NCBI GenBank assembly: GCA_001003705.1
Contig: LCPQ01000001.1
Coordinates: 58,008-122,007 of the forward strand
Direction: 5' to 3'
From: Parcubacteria group bacterium GW2011_GWA2_48_9
GTDB lineage: Bacteria > Patescibacteriota > Patescibacteriia > UBA10025
Length of the DNA: 64,000 nt
Below, piece after piece: positions 5,830 to 63,680 of the stretch; within the stretch, counting starts at the first letter, position 1, and each line of letters begins with the position of its first letter. Position numbers and translations under genes: made by a program. The notes below the pieces were generated by a model. That model saw only the letters and a program-made list of their open reading frames with translations. It searched no databases and was not told the DNA's origin.

Positions 5830-7104
5830 ATGCTCGATATTAAATACATAAGACAGCAGCGAGCCGAAGTGATACAGAGTTTGGCTACAAGAAAAGTACG
5901 CGCTGATAGAATCGAATTAGTCATGCAGTTAGATGAGAATCATCGGCAGCTCCTCCAGAAGCTTGAGGATATTCGCGCCGAAAAAAATACCATTTCTAAG
6001 TCGATTACGTCATTAAGCCCTAAGGAAAAATCTCGCGTGCTTCAACGCATGGCAGACCGTTCGAAAGAAGAAAAAAAACTGGAGCAAAACACTGCTGAAA
6101 TTGAATCCAAGCGAATAGAAGCGCTTGGTGCATTACCAAACCTCCCTCATCAGAGTGTTCCCGTCGGAAATGACCAATCTCAAAATAAAGTCGTAAAAAC
6201 TGTTGGAAACAAACCTGACCTTGGATTCACCCCACTTGACTACATTACACTGAGTGAACGCCATGGACTTATTGACATTGTTCGCGCTGCAAAAATAAGT
6301 GGTTCACGATTCGGATATCTTACTGGCAATGGCGCACAACTTTGGTTCGCGCTCATGCAATACACTTTTGACATACTCCGTTCGAACGGCTTTTCATTTT
6401 TTTTCCCCCCCGTACTGGTAAAAAAACAAATAATGGAAAATACCGGTTACGATTCATATATTGAGGGCCAGGAGGCATACTACATCGAAAAAGATGATTT
6501 ATTTCTCATAGGGACGGGTGAACATGCGCTTGTGCCGTATCACAGCGGAGAAACATTGCCATCAGAGACCCTCCCGCGCCTTTATGCGGCATACTCGACG
6601 TGCTTTCGGAGAGAGGCGGGAAGCTACGGTAAGGACACAAAAGGTATTATGCGTGTACACCAGTTCGATAAAATTGAAATGGTTATTATCACGGATCCAG
6701 ACACCTCTTGGGACCAATTCGATAAGCTAGTAGAAATACAGGAACGCATAGTCACGGGACTCAAACTACCATATCATTTACTGGAGGTATGTACTGGTGA
6801 TCTTCCAAAACCGTCAGCAAAAGTTATTGACCTCGAGTGTTGGGTTCCATCTGAAGGACGCTATCGAGAAACCCATTCGGCTTCAAATTGCACCGATTAC
6901 CAGGCGCGTCGCAACATGATTAGATGTAAGGAGTCGGATCAACCAACGTCATTCGTTCACATTCTGAATGCTACGGCGATCACCCCGCGTACGCTTGTTG
7001 CCATCATTGAAAATTATCAGCTTGCTGACGGTTCAATACAGATACCACAAGCACTCCAACCGTACTTTGCGGGAAAATTAGTACTCACCCCTTCGACAAA
7101 ATAA
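5830..7104 (+). CDS. serS: Serine--tRNA ligase
   Basis: 424 aa with an N-terminal coiled-coil arm and class II core motifs (…FRREAGSYGKDTKGIMRVHQF…). Confidence 0.9.
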   Translation: MLDIKYIRQQRAEVIQSLATRKVRADRIELVMQLDENHRQLLQKLEDIRAEKNTISKSITSLSPKEKSRVLQRMADRSKEEKKLEQNTAEIESKRIEALGALPNLPHQSVPVGNDQSQNKVVKTVGNKPDLGFTPLDYITLSERHGLIDIVRAAKISGSRFGYLTGNGAQLWFALMQYTFDILRSNGFSFFFPPVLVKKQIMENTGYDSYIEGQEAYYIEKDDLFLIGTGEHALVPYHSGETLPSETLPRLYAAYSTCFRREAGSYGKDTKGIMRVHQFDKIEMVIITDPDTSWDQFDKLVEIQERIVTGLKLPYHLLEVCTGDLPKPSAKVIDLECWVPSEGRYRETHSASNCTDYQARRNMIRCKESDQPTSFVHILNATAITPRTLVAIIENYQLADGSIQIPQALQPYFAGKLVLTPSTK

Positions 7105-53946: not shown

Positions 53947-54738
53947 CTACTTTGCCAGCTCAGCATCAATAACCGAGGCAAACTGTTCGTACGGTACCGC
54001 TCCTGAGACGAGCGTCCCATTGACGAAGGTCGCGGGTGTTCCCTGTACGCCGTATTGGGTTCCTTGAGTTGTGTCGTCCTGTACTTTTGACTGGTATTTG
54101 CCTGAGTCGAGACAACCATCAAACTGGCTCTGGTTCAACCCGAGGCCCCCGGCAGCACTCTTAAAGTTTTCTATGCTTAACGTGCCGGCCGCATTCATCT
54201 CAAAAAGCTTATCATGCATCTCCCAAAACTTACCTTGCTCTGCCGCGCATTCAGAGGCCTCTGCAGCCTTCTGCGCCAAGGGATGAAGTGATGTCAAGGG
54301 AAAGTGCCGATAGATAAGCCGTACATCATCTCCATATGTGTCGAGAATCCGCTGCGTAGTTGGATTAACCTGTTCACAGAATGGGCACTGAAAATCTGAA
54401 TATTCCACTAATGTGACTTTCGCGTTTTCACCGCCGCGAATATAATCATCGTCGCGAATAGGAATGTCGACCACTGTTGGAGCAGCTGTGGGCGCAGCGG
54501 CAGTCGGGGCAGTATTTGTTGGGGCAACAGTGTTTGTAGTCGTCCCTGCAACTTTCCCGGTGTTTGAATTCTTAGAACCTACGCTGCCTCCCGTCCGAAG
54601 CATGGAGAAAGTCAGCATAAAACCTATGAAACTGATTGCGGCTATCCCTGAAACAAGTCCGAAGTAGAAGGTCATTTTCGATGAACCCTGGAATAAACCT
54701 TGTTCCGATTCTTGTGGCTGCGTACGTTCATGGTCCAT
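53947..54738 (-). CDS. DsbA-like thioredoxin-fold oxidoreductase with N-terminal TM anchor and a Thr/Ala-rich linker
   Basis: CxxC active site …DFQCPFCEQ… in a DsbA-type domain. It has its own promoter carrying a TACTAC-N5-GTAGTA operator. Confidence 0.8.
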   Translation of the reverse strand: MDHERTQPQESEQGLFQGSSKMTFYFGLVSGIAAISFIGFMLTFSMLRTGGSVGSKNSNTGKVAGTTTNTVAPTNTAPTAAAPTAAPTVVDIPIRDDDYIRGGENAKVTLVEYSDFQCPFCEQVNPTTQRILDTYGDDVRLIYRHFPLTSLHPLAQKAAEASECAAEQGKFWEMHDKLFEMNAAGTLSIENFKSAAGGLGLNQSQFDGCLDSGKYQSKVQDDTTQGTQYGVQGTPATFVNGTLVSGAVPYEQFASVIDAELAK

Positions 54739-54787: not shown

Positions 54788-54823
54788 TACTACACATTGT
54801 AGTAGAACTGTAGGATCAGTCAA
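54788..54823 (-). promoter_or_regulatory. Promoter of the DsbA-like gene with overlapping BlaI/CopY-type operator
   Basis: Minus strand reads TTGACT, a 16-nt spacer, then TACAAT. The perfect inverted repeat TACTAC-acatt-GTAGTA at 54788-54804 overlaps the -10. The core TACAnnnTGTA resembles BlaI/MecI/CopY boxes. Confidence 0.55.
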
Positions 54824-54845: not shown

Positions 54846-57053
54846 TTATTTCCATCTCTTAAGAAGAAGGGAGTTTGCGACCACGGATACACTTGAGAGA
54901 GCCATAGCCGCACCGGCAATCTCAGGACGGAGTTGCCATCCAAAAATAGGGTAGAAAATTCCGGCAGCAATGGGAATCCCGGCAATATTGTAGATGAGCG
55001 CCCAAAAAAGGTTCTGAACTATCTTTCGGAAGGTTCTTCGTGAAAGTGTGATGGCATGGACAACGTCGCGAAGATCGTTCTTGACCAGCACGATTTGCCC
55101 GGTCTCGAGGGCCACATCTGTCCCCGACCCAATGGCGATCCCAAGATCTGCTGTCGCAAGCGCCGGAGCGTCGTTGATGCCATCGCCGACGAAAGCAACT
55201 CTTTTTCCCCGTCCCTGCAGCTTCTTCACTTCATTTGCTTTGTCTTCCGGGAGGACTTCCGCGAGAATATAGCTGATGCCGATTTGTCCGGCTACCGCAT
55301 TGGCGGTGCGCTGGTTATCTCCTGTAATCATGGCAGTATGAATACCGAGCTTTTCAAGACTGCTGATCGCATCCGAAGCGTTGTCTTTCACCGTGTCGGC
55401 CACAGCAATCAATCCTGCCGCAGCATTTCCGATCCCGATGATCATGACGGTCTTGCCTTCATGCTCGAGACGTTCGAGGTCAGCATCAAGCTGCATAATA
55501 TCGATATGCTCTCGATCGAAGAGTCGCCGGTTTCCTAGCATCACCCTCTGGCCGTCAATGTTGCCGACTACCCCATGGCCCGGTACTGCAGTAAAGTACT
55601 CGACCTCAGATAGGGTAAGCGCATCCTGTGCGGCGCGTGTAACGATCGCTTCTGCCAAAGGATGTTCTGATCGCTTCTCGACTGATGCAGCATACATCAA
55701 TAGTGTGTGTTCATCTACCCCAGATGCCGTCACAATATTAGTCACGACTGGCTTGCCATTCGTCAATGTACCGGTCTTGTCGAACATAACAATATCGATC
55801 CTCCGCGCAGCTTCAAGCGCCTCGCCTCCTTTAATTAAAATACCCTTGGAGGCGCCTATGCCCGTGCCGGTGATGATTGCAGTGGGTGTAGCAAGGCCAA
55901 GGGCACAGGGGCAGGCGATAACCAAAACTGCGACAAATGCGAGCAAGCTTGGGACAAAAGGTTGGAGCGCAATAAAGTACCACGCAATAAACGTGATAAG
56001 TGCAATAGCAATGACGGCGGGAACAAAGTACGCCGAAACTCTGTCAGCAAACCGTTGAATGGGCGCTTTAGACGCTTGAGCATCTTCGACAAGTTTAATG
56101 ATGCCTGCAAGTAACGTGTCTTTACCAACTTTTGTGGCCTTAAAAATGAATGTTCCGTGTTTGTTGATCGTCCCGCCTATGACAACAGATTCAACGATCT
56201 TTTCGGTGGGGATGCTCTCACCTGTTACCATTGATTCATCAACTGATGAGGCTCCTTCTTCGACGACGCCGTCAACGGGGATTTTTGTACCAGGCTTGAC
56301 GCGAATTCGGTCACCGACGACAACATCGTTCAGGGAAATCTCAATCTCGCTGTTCCCACGAACCACGATAGCTGTCTTCGGGGCCAAGCCCATCAGCTTT
56401 TTGATCGCTTCTCCTGTTTTGCCCTTTGCCCGCGCTTCGAGCCATTTACCCAACAGAACAAACGCGATGAGAATACTGCCGATCTCAAAGTATACTTCTC
56501 CCGCCACAAGGCCGAGGACTACGATGATCGAATACACATACGCAGTTGATGTACCAATCGCAATGAGAGAATCCATGTTAGCCGTTCGGGCTTTCAGAGC
56601 GCCCCAGAAACCCCGATAAAATTGCCATCCCGCCCAAAACTGTATTGGCGTAGCAAAGAGAAACTGCAGCCATTCGCGATACGGAACGCTTTCAATAACT
56701 GGAAAAACTCGCATGCCCATGCTCAATACAAGGACAGGAAGTGAGAGCGCCACGCTTATGGCGAATTTACTTTTCAACTTTCGTATTTCATTCCTCCGGC
56801 TTTCTTCCTCACTTTGGCGAGATTCGTCGTTTTCCTTCAGCTCTTTCGCCCCATAGCCTACGGCTTCGACTCCTTTTACAAGGGCGCTGATGTTGGTAAT
56901 GGAAGAATCATACACCACATGCGCTCGTTCCGTACCGTAATTCACTGAGGTTTGCTGGACACCACTGACACGTTTCAACCCACGTTCAATTAGCTGAGCG
57001 CAGCTTGCGCAATGCATTCCAGATACTGACAATAGTACGTTCTGATCGGCCAT
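54846..57053 (-). CDS. copA: Copper-translocating P1B-type ATPase
   Basis: N-terminal HMA domain (…GMHCASCAQLIE…), TM CPC motif (…IACPCALGLATP…), DKTGTLT phosphorylation site and GDGINDAP hinge. Confidence 0.95.
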   Translation of the reverse strand: MADQNVLLSVSGMHCASCAQLIERGLKRVSGVQQTSVNYGTERAHVVYDSSITNISALVKGVEAVGYGAKELKENDESRQSEEESRRNEIRKLKSKFAISVALSLPVLVLSMGMRVFPVIESVPYREWLQFLFATPIQFWAGWQFYRGFWGALKARTANMDSLIAIGTSTAYVYSIIVVLGLVAGEVYFEIGSILIAFVLLGKWLEARAKGKTGEAIKKLMGLAPKTAIVVRGNSEIEISLNDVVVGDRIRVKPGTKIPVDGVVEEGASSVDESMVTGESIPTEKIVESVVIGGTINKHGTFIFKATKVGKDTLLAGIIKLVEDAQASKAPIQRFADRVSAYFVPAVIAIALITFIAWYFIALQPFVPSLLAFVAVLVIACPCALGLATPTAIITGTGIGASKGILIKGGEALEAARRIDIVMFDKTGTLTNGKPVVTNIVTASGVDEHTLLMYAASVEKRSEHPLAEAIVTRAAQDALTLSEVEYFTAVPGHGVVGNIDGQRVMLGNRRLFDREHIDIMQLDADLERLEHEGKTVMIIGIGNAAAGLIAVADTVKDNASDAISSLEKLGIHTAMITGDNQRTANAVAGQIGISYILAEVLPEDKANEVKKLQGRGKRVAFVGDGINDAPALATADLGIAIGSGTDVALETGQIVLVKNDLRDVVHAITLSRRTFRKIVQNLFWALIYNIAGIPIAAGIFYPIFGWQLRPEIAGAAMALSSVSVVANSLLLKRWK

Positions 57054-57077: not shown

Positions 57078-57449
57078 TTATTCGACCACAATCTTCCCCT
57101 GATACATCCCCATATCGCATGTAAAAGGGATTTCCCCTGTTTCGGTAGGAGTAAACTCAACATCAGTCATGCCAAATGCCTTGAGATCCTTCCGAATCTT
57201 CATCCCCTCAAAGGTAACATACCGCGAACAATCCGCATGTTCTTGGCGGTTAAAGTGAAGGCGTACGGGAATCCCCGCTTTTACCGTAATGATGTTTGGA
57301 TCGTATGCCCCTTTTACTAAGATGGTGATTTCTTGTACACCGCTATTCATTTCCGCTTTTTCCTGCTTCCTTTGGAACCGGAGCCAAAGAAAAAAAATTC
57401 CGAAAATACCCGCTGTAAGGACGATGCCGATAACTTGACGTGAATCCAT
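57078..57449 (-). CDS. Small membrane-anchored cupredoxin-like protein
   Basis: 123 aa with an N-terminal TM segment. The C-terminal domain ends …FTCDMGMYQGKIVVE, a Cupredoxin_1-like CxxGMxxGxI motif. It is a paralogue of the next gene. Confidence 0.55.
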   Translation of the reverse strand: MDSRQVIGIVLTAGIFGIFFLWLRFQRKQEKAEMNSGVQEITILVKGAYDPNIITVKAGIPVRLHFNRQEHADCSRYVTFEGMKIRKDLKAFGMTDVEFTPTETGEIPFTCDMGMYQGKIVVE

Positions 57450-57952: not shown

Positions 57953-58708
57953 TTACTTACTAAACCAGGATTCCGGCTGAAAATCATTGAGCGCACGGTT
58001 GATATACACATTTGTCAAATACAGTTGATTCGTTATCATGAGAACTCCAATCAGCATCAAGAGTGCTGCGCTGACCATCGTGACCATTCTATGGTGCTTT
58101 TTAATAAACTGAGTGGCTTCGATTATTCTGCTGTAAAAAAGGGTAAACGTGAGAAGGGCAACTGCAAGACCAAGCGAGTAGAGGCTGAAATACGCGATAC
58201 CGCTGCCAATATTCCCTGTCTGACTTACCAGCGCTACGACACCGAGGAGAAAGGGACCGATGCATGGAGTCCAGACAAAAGCGAACGTGGCACCAAAAAA
58301 CAGGTTTCCGATAAACGTGCGCTGGTGTGGCTTCCAGTGAATCCGAGCTTCGCCGTTCATCCAGCGGAGAAATGATAGCGGATAAACAAAATTGAGTCCA
58401 AGGAGAAATACTACAGCCCCAGCAACTACTGCTATGATCTCCCGTGCGCTACCAATCGCCTCCGCAGCAACACCGATAAGCGCACCCAATGGAATAAAGA
58501 TAAGAAAAAATCCGAGAACGAAACCAGTGGCATTTGAAAGAATTTGGCGGCGGAAAGTATGACTGTCATCGGTAGTTCGCAATTCCTCGGTACTCAACCC
58601 AGTAATGGTGGTGAGATACGCGGGGAGCAAAACGACGACGCAGGGAGAAATGATTGAAAGAACACCGTAGAAAAACGAAAAGAAAAATGGTATAGTGCTA
58701 ATATCCAT
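57953..58708 (-). CDS. ccdA: CcdA/DsbD-family thiol-disulfide transporter (membrane electron-transfer protein)
   Basis: 251 aa with 6+ TM segments and conserved Cys in TM1 (…LSIISPCVVVLLPAYL…) and TM4 (…WTPCIGPFL…). Confidence 0.8.
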   Translation of the reverse strand: MDISTIPFFFSFFYGVLSIISPCVVVLLPAYLTTITGLSTEELRTTDDSHTFRRQILSNATGFVLGFFLIFIPLGALIGVAAEAIGSAREIIAVVAGAVVFLLGLNFVYPLSFLRWMNGEARIHWKPHQRTFIGNLFFGATFAFVWTPCIGPFLLGVVALVSQTGNIGSGIAYFSLYSLGLAVALLTFTLFYSRIIEATQFIKKHHRMVTMVSAALLMLIGVLMITNQLYLTNVYINRALNDFQPESWFSK

Positions 58709-58711
58709 GCG

Positions 58712-58960
58712 CTAGGAAACTAGTTCACGTGCCTCATATCCTGTCTTTCTGATTTGGTCAAAAATCTTCTCTCTCGTAATCTTTCCGGGGTCGAAGACAA
58801 TCTCGCCAGTGTTGTGCTGTTCGTTGATTTTCACCACTACGCCAATATCCTCGAGGTCCATGGTTATGAGCCGGCTACAAGATGCACAATGCATACCTGA
58901 AATAGTAATGTTCATTGTCTCCATATCATCTATTGCAAAAACACCGATCTCGGTCCCCAA
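58712..58960 (-). CDS. copZ: Heavy-metal-associated copper chaperone (CopZ-like)
   Basis: 82 aa with GMHCASC metal-binding motif and an HMA ferredoxin-like fold. Confidence 0.8.
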   Translation of the reverse strand: MGTEIGVFAIDDMETMNITISGMHCASCSRLITMDLEDIGVVVKINEQHNTGEIVFDPGKITREKIFDQIRKTGYEARELVS

Positions 58961-59883
58961 ACCATAAGGAGTATCCCGGCAAGCACGACAGCAAAATTCA
59001 GTAAAGTATACGGCCAGAATCCATACGGGCGTACTTCCTGGCGCCCGTGTTTATGTTCCTTATATACCAGATAACTCATCCCAGCCAAAATCATCAGCGT
59101 CGCGACAAAAAAGATAGGCAGAAATATGGTGAGACGATCGGAGAACATCATCACCGCTGTCATTGCCCCCATAGTACCCCCCATCAAACCAGCCATCATA
59201 CCTTCCATGATACCCATAATTCCACAGCAGGCACCTACCCATCCGCCTACGCCCATACCTATGATCATGCCAAAAACCGATCCAACAAACATGCCATTAG
59301 TAGTTCCAATGACAATACCAAGGAGTAATCCGGAAATCATTCCGATAGTCATACCGATCATCATACCTGTCATACAAGACACGGCTCCGCGAAAAGCGCG
59401 CAAGTGCCTGATTGCCCCGCCGGTAGCCACCACGGCAATTATGAGATAACCGATATACTGACCGTAGTTTCCCCAGAATGATTCAACATTCCAGAAGAAA
59501 ACGAAGTAAGTAAAATATGCGAGAGCTGCGACAACCACAAGTGTCCCCAGAGTGGATTTAATCACATTCTTTTCAAATGTGTACGCGGCTGGATCTTTGA
59601 AAAAAGATTGTTTGACGCGTCGCACTCGCTCGGACAATGATTCCCCACTGTCCCGGTCTTGCACAGACGTCTCAGACGCACTATAACCGACATTGGCGAT
59701 AGCTTCACGTACCTTTGAGAAGGGTACAATTGCCGGGTCATAACGAAGCTCAACGCGCTCACTTGTATACCGAATATCCTCCACCTCAACACCTATCCGC
59801 CCGAGAGCTTTTGTAATAGTTTTCTCACATGCATCGCAATGCATCCCCTGTATCCAAATGTCTTTGACGATTGTTTCGGTCAT
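58930..59883 (-). CDS. HMA-domain protein fused to a Met/Gly-rich polytopic membrane domain
   Basis: N-terminal HMA domain (…IQGMHCDACEKTI…), then several TM helices packed with MxxxM/GxxxG patterns (…MIGMTIGMISGLLLGIVIG…FGMIIGMGVGGWVGACCGIMGIMEGMMAGLMGG…). Confidence 0.6.
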   Translation of the reverse strand: MTETIVKDIWIQGMHCDACEKTITKALGRIGVEVEDIRYTSERVELRYDPAIVPFSKVREAIANVGYSASETSVQDRDSGESLSERVRRVKQSFFKDPAAYTFEKNVIKSTLGTLVVVAALAYFTYFVFFWNVESFWGNYGQYIGYLIIAVVATGGAIRHLRAFRGAVSCMTGMMIGMTIGMISGLLLGIVIGTTNGMFVGSVFGMIIGMGVGGWVGACCGIMGIMEGMMAGLMGGTMGAMTAVMMFSDRLTIFLPIFFVATLMILAGMSYLVYKEHKHGRQEVRPYGFWPYTLLNFAVVLAGILLMVWGPRSVFLQ

Positions 59884-59894
59884 AGTTATTAAGT

Positions 59895-60938
59895 TTATTG
59901 AGCTTTTGACTGCACTTCCTCGCAGGTCGTCGCATGCCCCGAGGGGTCTGTTATGCATGTCTTATTTTCGGGCATATTTAAAAGAAGCTGCGGAATAATC
60001 CCTGGACATACGGTCGACTGGGACATAAGATGCGCCGCCGTACCATCGACCGGCATTTGTGGGGCAGCAGAGATGGAGTGGGAAAAAACTATTGAACCCA
60101 TAAAAAACAACAGAGCTACAAGTGGGATAATGACAGCGACCCGCGTATGTGGGTAAAACTGTCTATTAATAATTCGCTCAATACGGTCATTAATAGCGGA
60201 AAAAGCGGGGATGGTGGCTGGAATCATTGTTTCACGGACTTTCAACGCCTTTACGAGCGCCCTACCCAGAAAATGATCCGTGCCCTGTTGTCGAATAGCT
60301 GCTTCATCAGCAGAAATTTCCAATAACGTTTTAATATATTCAGCGAACTTCGCGATCCCAGGGATAAACCAGAATACCTTTGTAAAAAAATGTACAATGA
60401 GAAGTCGGCTAGTGTCCCGCTTTATGCAATGGTGTTCTTCATGCAGAAGAACTCCGAGAAGTTCGCCATCGTTGAGCATTTCTATCATACCCCTACTGAT
60501 ATAGATAGTCGGGTGCGAAAAACCGGCACTTACAACGTAAGAACGGGAATCATCAATTTCAAGGACTGGAAATCCTACCCGTTCAGTAATTTTCTGAAGT
60601 CTCATGCTCATGTTCTTACTAGTTTTAGAGCGGAGTGAACGAATATAATTTGCAGTCCGGATAAACGTCACAGCTAGTAAAATAACCGCCACGAAGAAAA
60701 ACACACTTACTGCACCCAACAGGGCAATATTGATTGAGCTCAATACGACGTCTTTGCCCGTCAATCCCGCTATAAGCTGGCTGCAGGCATGAACGAATTC
60801 AGCAAGTACAACACCAACAAACCCTGAAATATGAGGGATAAGGTTAAGTGCGAGCACGAGAGCGCCTAAGACAAGCCCAAGGCCGCTTAATGCAAAAAGA
60901 GAGAACTGCCGACCGCTTGTTTGATCAGATACGTTCAT
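59895..60938 (-). CDS. M56-family (BlaR1/MecR1-like) membrane zinc metalloprotease signal transducer lacking a PBP sensor domain
   Basis: N-terminal polytopic domain with HExxH (…LLHEEHHCIKRD…). The C-terminal roughly 100 aa is extracytoplasmic and His/Met/Cys-containing (…HLMSQSTVCPGIIP…KTCITDPSGHATTCEEV…), with no transpeptidase-like motifs. Confidence 0.8.
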   Translation of the reverse strand: MNVSDQTSGRQFSLFALSGLGLVLGALVLALNLIPHISGFVGVVLAEFVHACSQLIAGLTGKDVVLSSINIALLGAVSVFFFVAVILLAVTFIRTANYIRSLRSKTSKNMSMRLQKITERVGFPVLEIDDSRSYVVSAGFSHPTIYISRGMIEMLNDGELLGVLLHEEHHCIKRDTSRLLIVHFFTKVFWFIPGIAKFAEYIKTLLEISADEAAIRQQGTDHFLGRALVKALKVRETMIPATIPAFSAINDRIERIINRQFYPHTRVAVIIPLVALLFFMGSIVFSHSISAAPQMPVDGTAAHLMSQSTVCPGIIPQLLLNMPENKTCITDPSGHATTCEEVQSKAQ

Positions 60939-61317
60939 TGCTTTTCTCCCTAATTTTCTTTTCGAGAAGCTCGAGTTTTTTCGGGTCTACCTTATCAAGC
61001 GTCTTGACAAACTCAGCGATGGCCACATCACCACACTCGGATATAAGCTTCTTGATGATATCGCCGGAAGCACGAGAAAAAAAAGATTCGCGTTTTTGCG
61101 CCGCTGAGTACTCAAAAGCGCCAGTGTGATCCTTTCGATTCAAGAGTCGCTTCTCCGCGAGGCGGTACATAACCGTCATAACGGTGGTATATGCTATGTG
61201 TCGCTTCTTCCGAAGAATTTTCACAACATCGCGCACCGTAACGGTACCCCGCTCCCAGATAATTTCCATAATTTGTTTTTCAAGCTCTCCGAGTAGGTAG
61301 AATGAGTGTTTTGTCAT
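60925..61317 (-). CDS. BlaI/MecI/CopY-family winged-helix repressor (without C-terminal CxC metal cluster)
   Basis: 130 aa (…LGELEKQIMEIIWERGTVTVRDVV…AYTTVMTVMYRLAEKRLL…) is the penicillinase-repressor fold. The C-terminus is a coiled coil with no CxCxxxxCxC motif. Confidence 0.85.
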   Translation of the reverse strand: MTKHSFYLLGELEKQIMEIIWERGTVTVRDVVKILRKKRHIAYTTVMTVMYRLAEKRLLNRKDHTGAFEYSAAQKRESFFSRASGDIIKKLISECGDVAIAEFVKTLDKVDPKKLELLEKKIREKSNERI

Positions 61318-61336: not shown

Positions 61337-61373
61337 TACTACGAAATGTAGTATCTCTGAATAAAGGTGTCAA
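61337..61373 (-). promoter_or_regulatory. Promoter of the copY-like operon with overlapping BlaI/CopY-type operator
   Basis: Minus strand reads TTGACA, a 17-nt spacer, then TACATT. The inverted repeat TACTAC-gaaat-GTAGTA at 61337-61353 overlaps the -10. Arrangement and arms are the same as at 54788-54804. Confidence 0.55.
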
Positions 61374-61425: not shown

Positions 61426-61881
61426 TCAGGTCCCTACCGGTTCATGCTGAATACGTCGATATGCTGTGACGTTCGTGATCAAGATGCCAAGATAAAAAAG
61501 CAACCCATATACGCAAGCGGGTAAACCGGTAAAGGTAAGTTTGAGAATCCAAACCTCGTACACAATTAGAGTTGATGAAAAAAGTGTTCCAACGACACCG
61601 AGAATAATTAGCGCTTTGATCATGCTCTTCTTCGGTTTTCCCGCTAATGCTGCGGCTGACAGGAGAAATACCGTGAAGAACATTGCAAAACCGTATACAC
61701 AGGTGGGTAAACCGAAAATAAGTACCTTAGCTGGACCGCCGCACGAAACTAACCAATTCAAAGGACCTTGGTGACAACTAGGACCGATAAGATTCCAATA
61801 AGTTAAATACCCCGAGAGTAAACTCCCGGCAAATGCAAAAGTGAGGCTGACGATAGCTAGTTTACGATTACTTGTCATCAT
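61426..61881 (-). CDS. Small polytopic membrane protein with internally duplicated GLPxCVYG motifs and a Cys-rich loop
   Basis: 151 aa with 4 TM segments. Loop …IGPSCHQGPLNWLVSCGGP…. Two halves each contain GLP(T/A)CVYG(F/L) at a helix start. It lies downstream of arsR–YHS in the same orientation. Confidence 0.4.
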   Translation of the reverse strand: MMTSNRKLAIVSLTFAFAGSLLSGYLTYWNLIGPSCHQGPLNWLVSCGGPAKVLIFGLPTCVYGFAMFFTVFLLSAAALAGKPKKSMIKALIILGVVGTLFSSTLIVYEVWILKLTFTGLPACVYGLLFYLGILITNVTAYRRIQHEPVGT

Positions 61882-61910: not shown

Positions 61911-62387
61911 CTAAATATACCGGACAGCCCGTTTTTCAAATGCAGTTTTACAGCCAGAGGCGCAAAAGTAATATTCGCTCCGCTTATACCAAGAAGATAG
62001 AACAGCAGTCTCAGGAGAGAGTTTCATGCCGCATACAGGATCAATAACGCGCGGTATAGCAGCTTTTTGGCTTATTCGGCTCCATGGTTGAGACTTTTTC
62101 TGGTCAACGAGAATTCCGTGGATGGCATCAAAGGCTTTTGCCACATTATGATGTGCCAGGCAGTACGTCATTTCACGTCCCTCTCGCTTAGGAAGAACCA
62201 GGCGTTCTTGCCGCAACACCTGCAAATGCTGGCTGACGTTTGATTGCGCCATTCCGGTCATTCGCTGTATATCGGTTACCGTCAACGAATGGCTGCGCAA
62301 AAGCTGTATAATTTCCAGGCGTTTGGGGTTGGCAAGCGCTTGAAAAATGCCGCTGTCTTGTTTAAATGCGTCGTTATACATATTCAA
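61911..62387 (-). CDS. ArsR/SmtB-family transcriptional regulator fused to a C-terminal YHS/TRASH metal-binding domain
   Basis: HTH …LANPKRLEIIQLLRSHSLTVTDIQRMTGMAQSNVSQHLQVLR…. C-terminal …DPVCGMKL…YYFCASGCKTAF… is the YHS/TRASH Cys signature. Confidence 0.75.
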   Translation of the reverse strand: MNMYNDAFKQDSGIFQALANPKRLEIIQLLRSHSLTVTDIQRMTGMAQSNVSQHLQVLRQERLVLPKREGREMTYCLAHHNVAKAFDAIHGILVDQKKSQPWSRISQKAAIPRVIDPVCGMKLSPETAVLSSWYKRSEYYFCASGCKTAFEKRAVRYI

Positions 62388-62422: not shown

Positions 62423-62629
62423 CACGCGGTTATCCACAGCTACATCAACAACAAAAACCGTATACATACGTACGGACGTCAATAAGTTTATTTAATGTAC
62501 CTCTTCCTCCAGAACTCGGATTCGGTTCTGGGCGCCACGCACGCTCGCGGCTTCGAATCCAAGCTGCGTTACCAAAAAACCTTATCATCTTGCACAATGT
62601 TTGCTTGATTAACCTCGTCTATTCCCTTT

Positions 62630-62700
62630 CTCCGGGACTTGGATTCGAACCAAGATACCAGGCTTCAAAGGCCTGTGTCCTACCATTAGACGATCCCGGA
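62630..62700 (-). tRNA. tRNA-Gln (anticodon UUG)
   Basis: Folded by hand. Acceptor UCCGGGA/UCCCGGA with the U1-A72 pair typical of bacterial tRNA-Gln. D-arm GUCU-AAUGGUA-GGAC. Anticodon arm CAGGC-CUUUGAA-GCCUG. T-arm CUUGG-UUCGAAU-CCAAG. Discriminator G. No encoded CCA. Confidence 0.8.
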
Positions 62701-62762
62701 ATACACTAAAACAACTGGCCTATGCACGCACAGTATACGGATTCAGCTATACAGTGTAAAGA

Positions 62763-63680
62763 CTATACTTTGAGATACTTCCCTACTGCGACTGCCGAAC
62801 TGATCACGCTTAACCCCATAGCTATGACAAGCTGTAGAAGCATGATTGAAAGCAAGTGCGACGTGAAATACTGCAAGAGATTGAAATCATAGCCCTCAAA
62901 GAGTGTAGCAATGTAAGGAGAGACTACATGCACAAAAGGATACAGAAGTGCCATGGAAAACAGTACTGCTATGAACGCGTAGAGAATACTTTCTAATACA
63001 AACGGGAATCGGATGAACCAGTTCGATGCGCCAACAAGTTTCATAATACCTATCTCCTCACGATGCGTGTAAATCGTAATACGAATAGTGTTGAATATAA
63101 TAAGTATACTGATTAAAACAAATACACCCGTTACGAGCATTCCGATACGCTGCACCCTCGAAGCGATATCTGAAAGCCGGTCGGTGATCACCTGATTATC
63201 ATCGAAATTACTGTTTTCAATTAACTCCGCATAATCAGGGTCTTCGAGCATTTCGAGAATCAACGGGTAGTCTTCGATATTTTTCGCCTTTATCACGAGT
63301 GTCGCACCGAGCGGGTTCTCCTCAAGTTCATCAAGTGACTGGATAATCTCCGGATCATTTACGTGCCGCTCGCGAAAACGACGTTCAGCCTCTTCTTTTG
63401 AAACAAGGGTTACATTGTCGACGCTTCGTAATGACTCGAAACGATATTGAATATTCTGGATCTCTTGCTGGTCGACATCAGGGTTAAAGTACACTGATAC
63501 GTCAATCTTATTTTCAATAGATGATACCACTTCGCGTGCAACGACATTTACTCCGCCAACCATGCTCACAGAGAATAAGGTGAGTACGAGAATGATCACC
63601 GTTACCACGGAAAGCCAAATGTTTCGCCAGAAACCCTGAAGGGCAAAATGGAAAGCTCGAATGAGTGAAGTTACAATCAT
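62763..63680 (-). CDS. ftsX: Cell-division ABC transporter permease FtsX
   Basis: 305 aa with a TM segment, a large periplasmic loop, three further TM segments and the conserved FtsX C-terminal region. It is directly downstream of ftsE. Confidence 0.85.
   Translation of the reverse strand: MIVTSLIRAFHFALQGFWRNIWLSVVTVIILVLTLFSVSMVGGVNVVAREVVSSIENKIDVSVYFNPDVDQQEIQNIQYRFESLRSVDNVTLVSKEEAERRFRERHVNDPEIIQSLDELEENPLGATLVIKAKNIEDYPLILEMLEDPDYAELIENSNFDDNQVITDRLSDIASRVQRIGMLVTGVFVLISILIIFNTIRITIYTHREEIGIMKLVGASNWFIRFPFVLESILYAFIAVLFSMALLYPFVHVVSPYIATLFEGYDFNLLQYFTSHLLSIMLLQLVIAMGLSVISSAVAVGKYLKV

Follow-up and report, generated by a model that had tools for sequence, protein, structure and literature searches.

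How might a membrane protein of a copper operon pass copper between the two faces of a membrane? The question is raised by a 64 000-nucleotide stretch of DNA from Parcubacteria group bacterium GW2011_GWA2_48_9 (contig LCPQ01000001.1, positions 58 008 to 122 007 of the forward strand; hereafter the window, with positions counted from its first letter), in which one gene of a copper (cop) operon, here called gene X, joins a CopZ-type HMA metallochaperone domain to a membrane domain crowded with methionine and glycine. Sequence comparison and structure modelling suggest that gene X belongs to an undescribed family of membrane proteins of cop operons, with seven transmembrane (TM) helices, a methionine stripe and glycine zippers. 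Our preferred reading is that these proteins form a relay or permease for Cu(I) across the membrane, with cytoplasmic HMA chaperones on one side and an extracytoplasmic cupredoxin on the other; with the direction of transfer left aside, we judge this an evenly balanced proposition. The parts of gene X, an open reading frame (ORF) modelled with AlphaFold 2 (AF2), are as follows.

58930..59883, minus strand: gene X, HMA plus 7-TM Met/Gly-rich membrane protein (ORF, homologues, AF2 pLDDT 93.2)
59668..59883, minus strand: N-terminal CopZ-type HMA domain, amino acids 1–72, predicted to be cytoplasmic (Pfam, PDB profile, AF2)
59575..59667, minus strand: K/R-rich linker with a short helix (amino acids 83–96), leading into TM1 (AF2; mean K+R of 4.9 over 121 homologues)
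58933..59574, minus strand: 7-TM membrane domain, amino acids 104–317, of an undescribed family
59146..59376, minus strand: TM3–TM5 core, amino acids 170–246, with Gly zipper, invariant Met, C170, C219–C220 and E227 (conservation, motif statistics)

Gene X is one uninterrupted ORF of 317 amino acids plus stop. It begins at an ATG (59883) located 11 nt past the stop codon of an M56 protease gene and ends in TAG at 58930–58932, with the ATG of copZ (58924) 5 nt further on; the placement between copZ (58712–58924) and the M56 gene (59895–60938), proposed in an earlier reading made from the sequence alone (the sequence-only reading), is hence correct. We set the start at 59883 because the homologues P0003 (317 amino acids) and P0002 (315 amino acids) begin at the equivalent of MTETIVKD. 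A longer version in a mechanical list of ORFs (start extended to 59958) was discarded, as it overlaps the M56 gene and disagrees with the starts of the homologues. Amino acids 9–67 match the Pfam HMA family (PF00403; 41 bits, with a curated cut-off of 24.8; E = 2.5e-10), carry the metal site GMHCDAC at positions 13–19 (M14-H-C16-D-A-C19) and fold in the AF2 model in the order β-α-β-β-α-β (strands 5–12, 33–38, 43–48 and 68–70; helices 17–29 and 55–64). The CxxC is kept among homologues, including a subgroup with DIECDSC, and a PDB profile search with this domain matched CopZ and the metal-binding domains of ATP7B and CopA. The Pfam match and the MHCDAC motif thus bear out the CopZ-type MxCxxC domain claimed from the sequence. 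No signal peptide precedes the HMA domain, and the flanking linker is K/R-rich.

The AF2 model of the whole protein, built on 121 homologues (pLDDT 93.2; pTM 0.85), contains seven TM helices (98–129, 136–163, 170–196, 198–220, 222–245, 251–277 and 289–309) as well as the short helix 83–96, and a separate model of the membrane domain by itself agrees (pLDDT 86.6). The four to five helices originally counted were therefore too few; the Met/Gly pattern lies in TM3–5, and the Met/Gly-rich string quoted at the time is found at amino acids 205–246. The accompanying claim that the helices are saturated with MxxxM and GxxxG held up well against composition: the membrane domain has 17 GxxxG (4.9 expected) and eight MxxxM (1.75 expected), and neither count was attained in any of 20 000 shuffles of the domain. 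Thirteen successive glycines follow each other at i+4 spacing from G173 to G221, and the 77 residues of the TM3–TM5 core include 21 Gly and 17 Met. Averaged over the 121 homologues, the segments that share a side with HMA have about 10.4 K+R in all (4.9 ahead of TM1, 1.7 in loop 2–3, 0.6 from the Lys preceding the CC motif and 3.2 in loop 6–7) versus 1.75 on the opposite side, a positive-inside bias that argues for an N-in/C-out topology. The HMA domain, E104, H160, C170 and C219–C220 are accordingly predicted to be cytoplasmic, and T195, N196, D249 and the C-terminus to lie outside.

Homologues are just 35–45% identical overall, yet the TM3–5 core is nearly frozen in archaea and bacteria alike. 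Methionines 175, 178, 182, 223, 234, 238, 241 and 245 are Met in 100% of sequences, never Leu, Ile or Val; methionines 171, 174, 226 and 230 are at least 90% conserved, and the glycines of the three zippers (TM3, TM4 and TM5) 94–100%. Polar and thiol residues are retained to a similar extent, i.e. E104 and N196 (100%), T179 (99%), C220 (98%), T195 (97%), H160 and D249 (96%), E227 (95%, otherwise Gln), C219 (94%) and C170 (88%, with His as the commonest replacement). More than 25 invariant positions are in this way maintained across two domains of life. As Met is never swapped for Leu, Ile or Val over this distance, the thioether itself appears to be the selected feature, and the conservation looks like that of metal ligands and not of generic hydrophobic residues. 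The i+3/i+4 spacing of M223, M226, M230, M234, M238, M241 and M245 places them in one stripe on TM5, from the CC motif to the outer end. Gene X has every invariant and near-invariant position of the family core motif, (S/T)CMxGMMIGMTIGM ... GATNGMF ... G(K)CCGIMGxMEGMMAGLMGGTMGAM.

A divergent subfamily (P0204, P0223, P0254 and others) retains the Met/Gly core but replaces C170 by His and E227 by His or Gln, substitutions that would be ligand for ligand. Its members have another Cys-rich N-terminal domain instead of HMA and an added Cys/Met-rich C-terminal tail, so that metal-type motifs are retained at both ends, on the same two membrane sides. The subfamily also comprises P0206, P0221, P0256, P0263, P0250 and a copy at locus L087 (8001–8999), and occurs in Gram-negative-type genomes with MutS, RseP and DsbC genes close by. 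It is recognizable by SHM in place of SCM, by WCCGPMAV(H/Q) and by a C-terminal NPF...EMxCGAMM. The L087 copy adjoins genes for cytochrome b and a DUF1924 protein, with a P1B ATPase gene 4 kb away.

The family is found mostly in DPANN archaea and to some extent in Patescibacteria, both of them ultra-small prokaryotes. A word-indexed search with gene X returned 768 proteins at E ≤ 1e-3; a profile of just the membrane domain, searched exhaustively, gave 695 cluster representatives at E ≤ 1e-3 (416 at E ≤ 1e-10). Scanning one genome per species (185 579 species) yielded 290 loci, the best 80 of which are nearly all from DPANN archaea (Woese-, Nano-, Pace-, Aenigmat- and Micrarchaeota), together with three Patescibacteria. 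In databases the homologues appear as 'hypothetical', as 'copper chaperone CopZ', as 'heavy-metal-associated domain-containing protein', as 'cation transporter' or as '(heavy metal translocating) P-type ATPase'. All of these labels go back to the HMA part, and the last two are wrong. Many members (221–246 amino acids) have no HMA domain at all, and in their genomes, as at loci L004 and L006, a gene encoding a 67–68-amino-acid HMA protein lies directly upstream of the HMA-less X with a 4-bp overlap. The fused form is conserved in dozens of clusters from two domains of life. Because the split form, known from archaea, consists of adjacent, overlapping genes, we conclude that the fusion is not an artefact of ORF calling, one of the two possibilities which would have undone the sequence-only reading.

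No known family could be assigned to the membrane domain. Pfam (E ≤ 10) and NCBIfam gave no family match to amino acids ~96–317 of gene X, nor did Pfam match this domain in any of 136 diverse family representatives, and Foldseek against the PDB found nothing at E ≤ 1e-3 (best TM-score 0.27). Its sole PDB sequence-profile match, MtrG (E = 0.034 over 40 residues), is regarded as a low-complexity chance match; DUF7442, Gly-zipper_YMGG, DUF2101, DUF2231 and ECF_trnsprt, each below Pfam cut-offs and in single members only, were likewise put down to chance. Gene X matches neither the CTR profile (PF04145), nor does it have three TM helices per subunit as CTR proteins do; CopD/PcoD (PF05425) was matched by neither the query nor the 136 representatives. 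The membrane part of MerT (NF033556, PF02411) was not matched either, the membrane domain alone giving no NCBIfam family; the MerTP model NF033556 matches the HMA portion only (amino acids 8–69; 32.8 bits against a cut-off of 180). Of the hallmarks of P1B ATPases, an E1-E2 ATPase domain, a HAD-like hydrolase domain, DKTGT and CPC are all missing from gene X, and HMA alone is matched. Literature searches, within the papers searchable, found the family described nowhere. The profile and fold comparisons with CTR, CopD and DUF families suggested in the sequence-only reading thus revealed no known unrelated family, and its impression that this is not a standard annotated family is upheld: the membrane domain has no relative in Pfam, NCBIfam, PDB sequences or solved folds. 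Its likeness to CTR and CopD survives as an analogy based on shared MxxxM and GxxxG motifs, but not as homology.

The genes around gene X, all on the minus strand and transcribed in the order blaI, M56, X, copZ, ccdA, two Cupredoxin_1 genes, copA and a DsbA-like gene, place it firmly in a copper context.

60925..61317, minus strand: BlaI/CopY-family repressor, without the C-terminal CxCxxxxCxC of CopY (PF03965, E = 4.6e-27)
59895..60938, minus strand: M56 (BlaR1-like) membrane metalloprotease with HEEHH (PF05569, E = 7.7e-16)
58712..58924, minus strand: copZ-like stand-alone HMA chaperone, 70 amino acids (Pfam HMA, E = 6.8e-8)
57953..58708, minus strand: CcdA/DsbD_TM thiol-reductant transporter (PF02683), in the same place in L001, L007 and L008
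57493..57930, minus strand: Cup2, membrane-anchored CupA-like cupredoxin with GC...CSMGM, predicted N-in/C-out (Pfam Cupredoxin_1)
57078..57449, minus strand: Cup1, second CupA-like cupredoxin, with DC...CDMGM (Pfam Cupredoxin_1, E = 7e-18)
54846..57053, minus strand: copA, P1B ATPase of the Cu(I) type, with HMA at its N-terminus and a CPC motif (translation)
53947..54738, minus strand: DsbA-like thioredoxin gene

We tabulated 86 loci using phmmer with the window proteins as queries. The usual order is copZ > X > Cup > copA, and a Patescibacteria homologue 70% identical to gene X has a gene order identical to that of the window. A cupredoxin gene is present in 82 of the 86 loci, mostly directly after X, a small HMA gene adjoins X in most of them, and a P1B ATPase ORF of more than 450 amino acids was found in about 60, many of the other contigs being incomplete; at some of the loci the Pfam domains of the ATPase were identified as well. 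X without HMA is likewise kept beside copZ, cup and copA. The dedicated Cu(I) handling proposed earlier is thus backed by a copper context at most loci; the permeation proposed along with it is something we infer. The suggested co-occurrence with M56/CopY pairs holds in some lineages but not in general: M56/BlaI is present in only about five of the 86 loci and, being lineage-specific, is not a defining association of the family.

The cupredoxins are the tightest partners of X. Cup2 aligns with Streptococcus pneumoniae CupA (2MRY/4F2E; E = 6e-5) and with the cupredoxin domain of pneumococcal CopA (4F2F), in both cases with the ligands in register, and all cupredoxin partners retain GC...C(S/G)M(G/N)M, the Cu(I) ligands of CupA. 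CupA itself is a Cu(I) chaperone anchored in the membrane; it has two sites, the bis-thiolate S1 and the Met-rich S2, and its gene accompanies copA under the control of a repressor of the BlaI/CopY family (PMC7558416). Automated scoring of partner topology was noisy, with many ties, and we relied instead on clear cases and on fusions that lack an anchor. Most of the stand-alone partners begin with a K-rich stretch ahead of the anchor or with a signal peptide that has a lipobox (e.g. LSAC, VAAC or VAGC). Three independent proteins (P0159; P0216, from a Magasanikbacteria metagenome-assembled genome, MAG; and P0251, from a Chloroflexi MAG) fuse the cupredoxin after TM7 of X. As these fusions have no hydrophobic segment between TM7 and the cupredoxin, TM7 appears to take over the role of the anchor; in P0251 a SurA-like periplasmic-type domain lies between the two. 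K-rich anchors, lipobox signals and TM7 fusions together indicate that the cupredoxin is outside the cell, opposite the HMA domain.

The two cupredoxins of the window differ in their anchors. Cup1 (MDSRQ-TM-RFQRKQEK) has its positive charge behind the helix (KRn = 1 versus KRc = 4 in orthologues), Cup2 (MKRQNSKQSDDSK-TM) ahead of it; the oppositely biased anchors may place the two on opposite membrane sides, with Cup1 facing the cytoplasm. The Cup1/Cup2 pair is conserved in L001, L007 and L008. A DPANN subgroup of cupredoxins (160–220 amino acids) has a C-terminal extension with a Cys/Gly-rich tail (...GGSCGxxGGGCGCGG) that may serve for additional metal binding or for anchoring; it is found at loci L022, L027, L031–L039, L041, L042, L045–L047, L052–L056, L059, L062, L064, L066, L068, L069, L072 and L079.

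A chaperone on each side of the membrane, a Cys/His/carboxylate cluster at the inner face, a Met stripe with invariant polar residues at its outer end and co-occurrence with CopA are most simply read as a Cu(I) relay or permease. In such a relay, the CxxC of a cytoplasmic HMA domain, whether part of X itself or the product of the gene before it, would exchange Cu(I) with a site at the inner face of the membrane domain built from H160, C170, C219–C220, E104 and E227. Cu(I) would then step across the bilayer along the Met stripe of TM5 (M223, M226, M230, M234, M238, M241, M245), flanked by the methionines of TM3 (M171, M174, M175, M178, M182). The three full-length Gly zippers would hold the helices very close, and this packing of TM3–5 could let methionines of adjacent helices share one metal ion. 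The stripe would terminate where T195, N196 and D249 make up an outer mouth, and there Cu(I) could be exchanged with an anchored extracytoplasmic CupA-like cupredoxin (C...CxMxM), supplied by the next gene or by a C-terminal fusion to X. The protein would act beside the CopA P1B ATPase during copper stress. Since X is co-transcribed with the exporter gene copA, we lean slightly towards an outward direction of transfer, and an outward hand-off might be coupled to protons via the membrane-embedded E227.

Several points weigh against this relay. The conserved methionines may face lipid or an oligomer interface and may not form a continuous path, and the CC motif is not universal (below 90% in A4, our widest alignment). 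No energy-coupling module is evident in gene X. A passive Cu(I) path would tend inward, given the membrane potential and the Met-to-thiolate affinity gradient, which is awkward for a protein co-expressed with an exporter, and a second exporter beside CopA would be partly redundant. Finally, CupA, the only characterised relative of the cupredoxin partners, is considered to face the cytoplasm (PMC7558416), at odds with the outside location predicted for these partners.

The inward tendency leads directly to the first rival, in which X is a Cu(I) uptake protein like MerT/MerP, CopC/CopD or CTR1. The outer cupredoxin would capture Cu(I) and pass it down the Met ladder to the Cys/His site and on to HMA and CopZ, either clearing a vulnerable outer face in the form of chaperone-bound Cu(I) or supplying a cytoplasmic copper sensor. 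The ligands do grade from a Met-only outer half over Cys/His at the inner face to the HMA CxxC, as in the importer CTR1, and passive cation flow is inward; the vicinal CC and HMA partner recall MerT/MerP, to which the match of the MerTP model to the HMA part may be added, and an outer β-sandwich copper protein with a polytopic membrane protein, sometimes fused, mirrors CopC–CopD and YcnJ. Co-transcription with copA in nearly all loci speaks against uptake, as nothing would be gained by taking copper in under copper stress only to send it back to where it came from; moreover, few cytoplasmic copper needs are known in DPANN and Patescibacteria. We consider uptake, which shares the conduit of the relay, differs from it in direction only and overlaps with it in probability, unlikely. 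No more probable in our view is a non-translocating membrane chaperone, Cu(I) buffer or accessory subunit, which would hand Cu(I) sideways to the entry platform of CopA or serve as a scaffold for CopA, CopZ and the outer cupredoxin. It would account for the tight linkage to copA and copZ, the placement of all Cys/His ligands on the cytoplasmic face, the resemblance of the HMA domain to the N-terminal metal-binding domains of ATPases and the missing energy-coupling module. It leaves unexplained why seven methionines run the full length of TM5 to the outside, why N196 and D249 do not vary at the outer face, and why X is most tightly associated with, and at its C-terminus fused only to, a cupredoxin that binds Cu(I) outside the cytoplasm.

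The remaining two rivals are far less probable. A role as copper sensor or signal transducer for the M56 protease and BlaI, or for another regulator, is suggested by the position of X directly after blaI–M56, seen in the window as well as at three further Patescibacteria loci, with BlaI/M56 also near in one Aenigmatarchaeota, and by protein P0202, which joins HMA and TM1–6 of X to a histidine kinase (HisKA_3). The scarcity of M56/BlaI (about five of 86 loci) makes this highly improbable, most archaeal operons having ArsR- or MarR-type regulators or none nearby, and P0202 (JGI; a 2 093-bp contig) is almost certainly a chimera produced by assembly: a Treponema kinase that stands alone shares 99% identity with its kinase half and an ordinary HMA-X protein 78% with its X half, no other protein combines the two halves, and it is a singleton. 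It is just as hard to credit that the Met/Gly domain has no metal role and is a mere anchor for HMA or part of a thiol-redox system linked to CcdA, DsbA and VKOR. TM helices that pack closely do often contain Met and Gly, the operon of the window has thiol-redox genes on its flanks and DsbA-like genes occur in 17 of the 86 loci; however, a simple anchor would not preserve more than 25 invariant positions over two domains of life, the CcdA gene lies inside the operon in Patescibacteria only, and the HMA-less form stays next to copZ, cup and copA. A trans-membrane thiol-redox relay is ruled out, the conserved Cys being all on one membrane face.

Relays of chaperone and conduit are a known type, and in its working the proposed Cu(I) relay would resemble MerP/MerT/NmerA for mercury and CopC/CopD and CTR1/Atox1 for copper, although the membrane family and fold are without a described or solved relative. 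CTR1 has MX3M thioether sites, a glycine zipper that grows out of a GX3G motif and packs the helices tightly, and, on the cytoplasmic side, an HCH site from which Cu(I) passes to HMA-type chaperones (PMC6437178). X is like it in having MxxxM in a TM helix, a Gly zipper and a cytoplasmic Cys/His site towards HMA chaperones, but CTR1 is a eukaryotic protein found outside exporter operons, with three TM helices, a pore along the homotrimer axis and two Met rings, whereas X is a single chain of seven TM helices, one of which bears a Met stripe from end to end; the two match in neither sequence nor fold. CopC/CopD (PcoC/PcoD) and YcnJ similarly combine an outer β-sandwich copper protein with a polytopic partner, adjacent or fused, in copper operons, but the partner of X is a CupA-type Cupredoxin_1 protein with Cys/Met ligands, X adds a cytoplasmic HMA domain, and the membrane fold is different. 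MerT/MerP and MerTP share with X a vicinal Cys-Cys in the membrane, an HMA domain and the passing of metal by ligand exchange; MerT, however, has three TM helices and lacks a Met ladder, neither merA nor merR lies near X, and the CopA and CupA-like context points to copper. The S. pneumoniae CupA–CopA system has the homologous cupredoxins with C...CxMxM binuclear Cu(I) ligands but no counterpart of X, and its CupA pairs with a cupredoxin-type N-terminal domain of CopA, unlike the HMA-type domain of the window CopA; most Cup partners of X are, moreover, predicted to lie outside. CusA also moves Cu(I) stepwise along Met clusters and exchanges it with a small Met-site chaperone, CusF, but is a proton-driven trimer of the resistance–nodulation–division (RND) type with 12 TM helices and large periplasmic domains, and its sequence and fold show no relationship to those of X.

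Accounts of copper homeostasis in prokaryotes usually feature P1B ATPases, RND pumps, CopCD, CcoA of the major facilitator superfamily (MFS) type and soluble chaperones. To our knowledge, the handling of Cu(I) at the outer face of single-membrane cells and the acceptors of CupA-type cupredoxins are poorly understood. The X family is a physical and genetic link between CopA, the HMA chaperone of the cytoplasm and the CupA-like cupredoxin outside. More speculatively, and with rather less than even confidence, X may represent a new class of Cu(I) transporter, a 'methionine wire' in which a single polypeptide would transfer Cu(I) directly between inside and outside chaperones without ATP, through a proposed set of seven stacked thioether sites on one helix face fixed by three Gly zippers; such a class would be largely confined to DPANN archaea and bacteria of the Candidate Phyla Radiation (CPR) and shared via inter-domain gene transfer. 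If X conducts Cu(I), it would offer a new transporter fold with a readable ligand pathway, useful for work on metal selectivity and for protein design, and would explain how episymbionts with minimal genomes cope with copper in anoxic groundwater. Its membrane domain is a clear new domain for Pfam and NCBIfam to define.

Regulation of the operon in the window probably involves the blaI gene and may involve the M56 gene. The M56 protein has no penicillin-binding sensor domain, and its C-terminal tail of about 60 amino acids past the last TM helix contains three Cys, three His and four Met; it could form a copper-sensing proteolytic switch together with the BlaI-family repressor. One Aenigmatarchaeota genome likewise has BlaI and M56 genes at its cop locus (L015). 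A perfect inverted repeat, TACTAC-N5-GTAGTA, is present exactly twice in the 64 kb (0.01 expected).

61337..61353, no strand assigned: TACTAC-N5-GTAGTA, putative operator upstream of blaI
54788..54804, no strand assigned: second copy, upstream of the DsbA-like gene

The blaI-side repeat overlaps the –10 element of a promoter-like TTGACA-17-TACATT, and the DsbA-side repeat likewise overlaps a promoter-like –10 element. The repeat upstream of blaI recurs in L001 and L007, and that upstream of the DsbA-like gene in L001, L007 and L008 (sites at 2326–2342, 6507–6523 and 13119–13135 in L001, three in L007, and 10848–10864 in L008); the third repeat of L001 precedes a gene cluster including redoxin and DsbD_TM genes. 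We consider the repeat to be probably the operator of the BlaI-like repressor, in which case its sites would define a copper and envelope-thiol regulon. Given the repeat and promoter upstream of blaI, X probably belongs to an operon that starts there under control of the BlaI-like repressor. The canonical cop box TACAnnTGTA is absent near the operon, its two sites in the window being distant and compatible with chance.

The cop genes of the window are surrounded by genes for VKOR (61426–61881), a regulator of the ArsR family that carries a fused metal-binding domain of YHS/TRASH type (61911–62387), CcdA (57953–58708) and the DsbA-like protein (53947–54738). This arrangement of cop and thiol-redox genes is reminiscent of the Scs (suppressor of copper sensitivity) systems, in which copper stress is connected with the repair of envelope disulfide bonds. 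A tRNA-Gln gene (anticodon TTG; 62629–62701, minus strand) lies between the ArsR-YHS gene and ftsX/ftsE (62763–63680 and 63687 onward).

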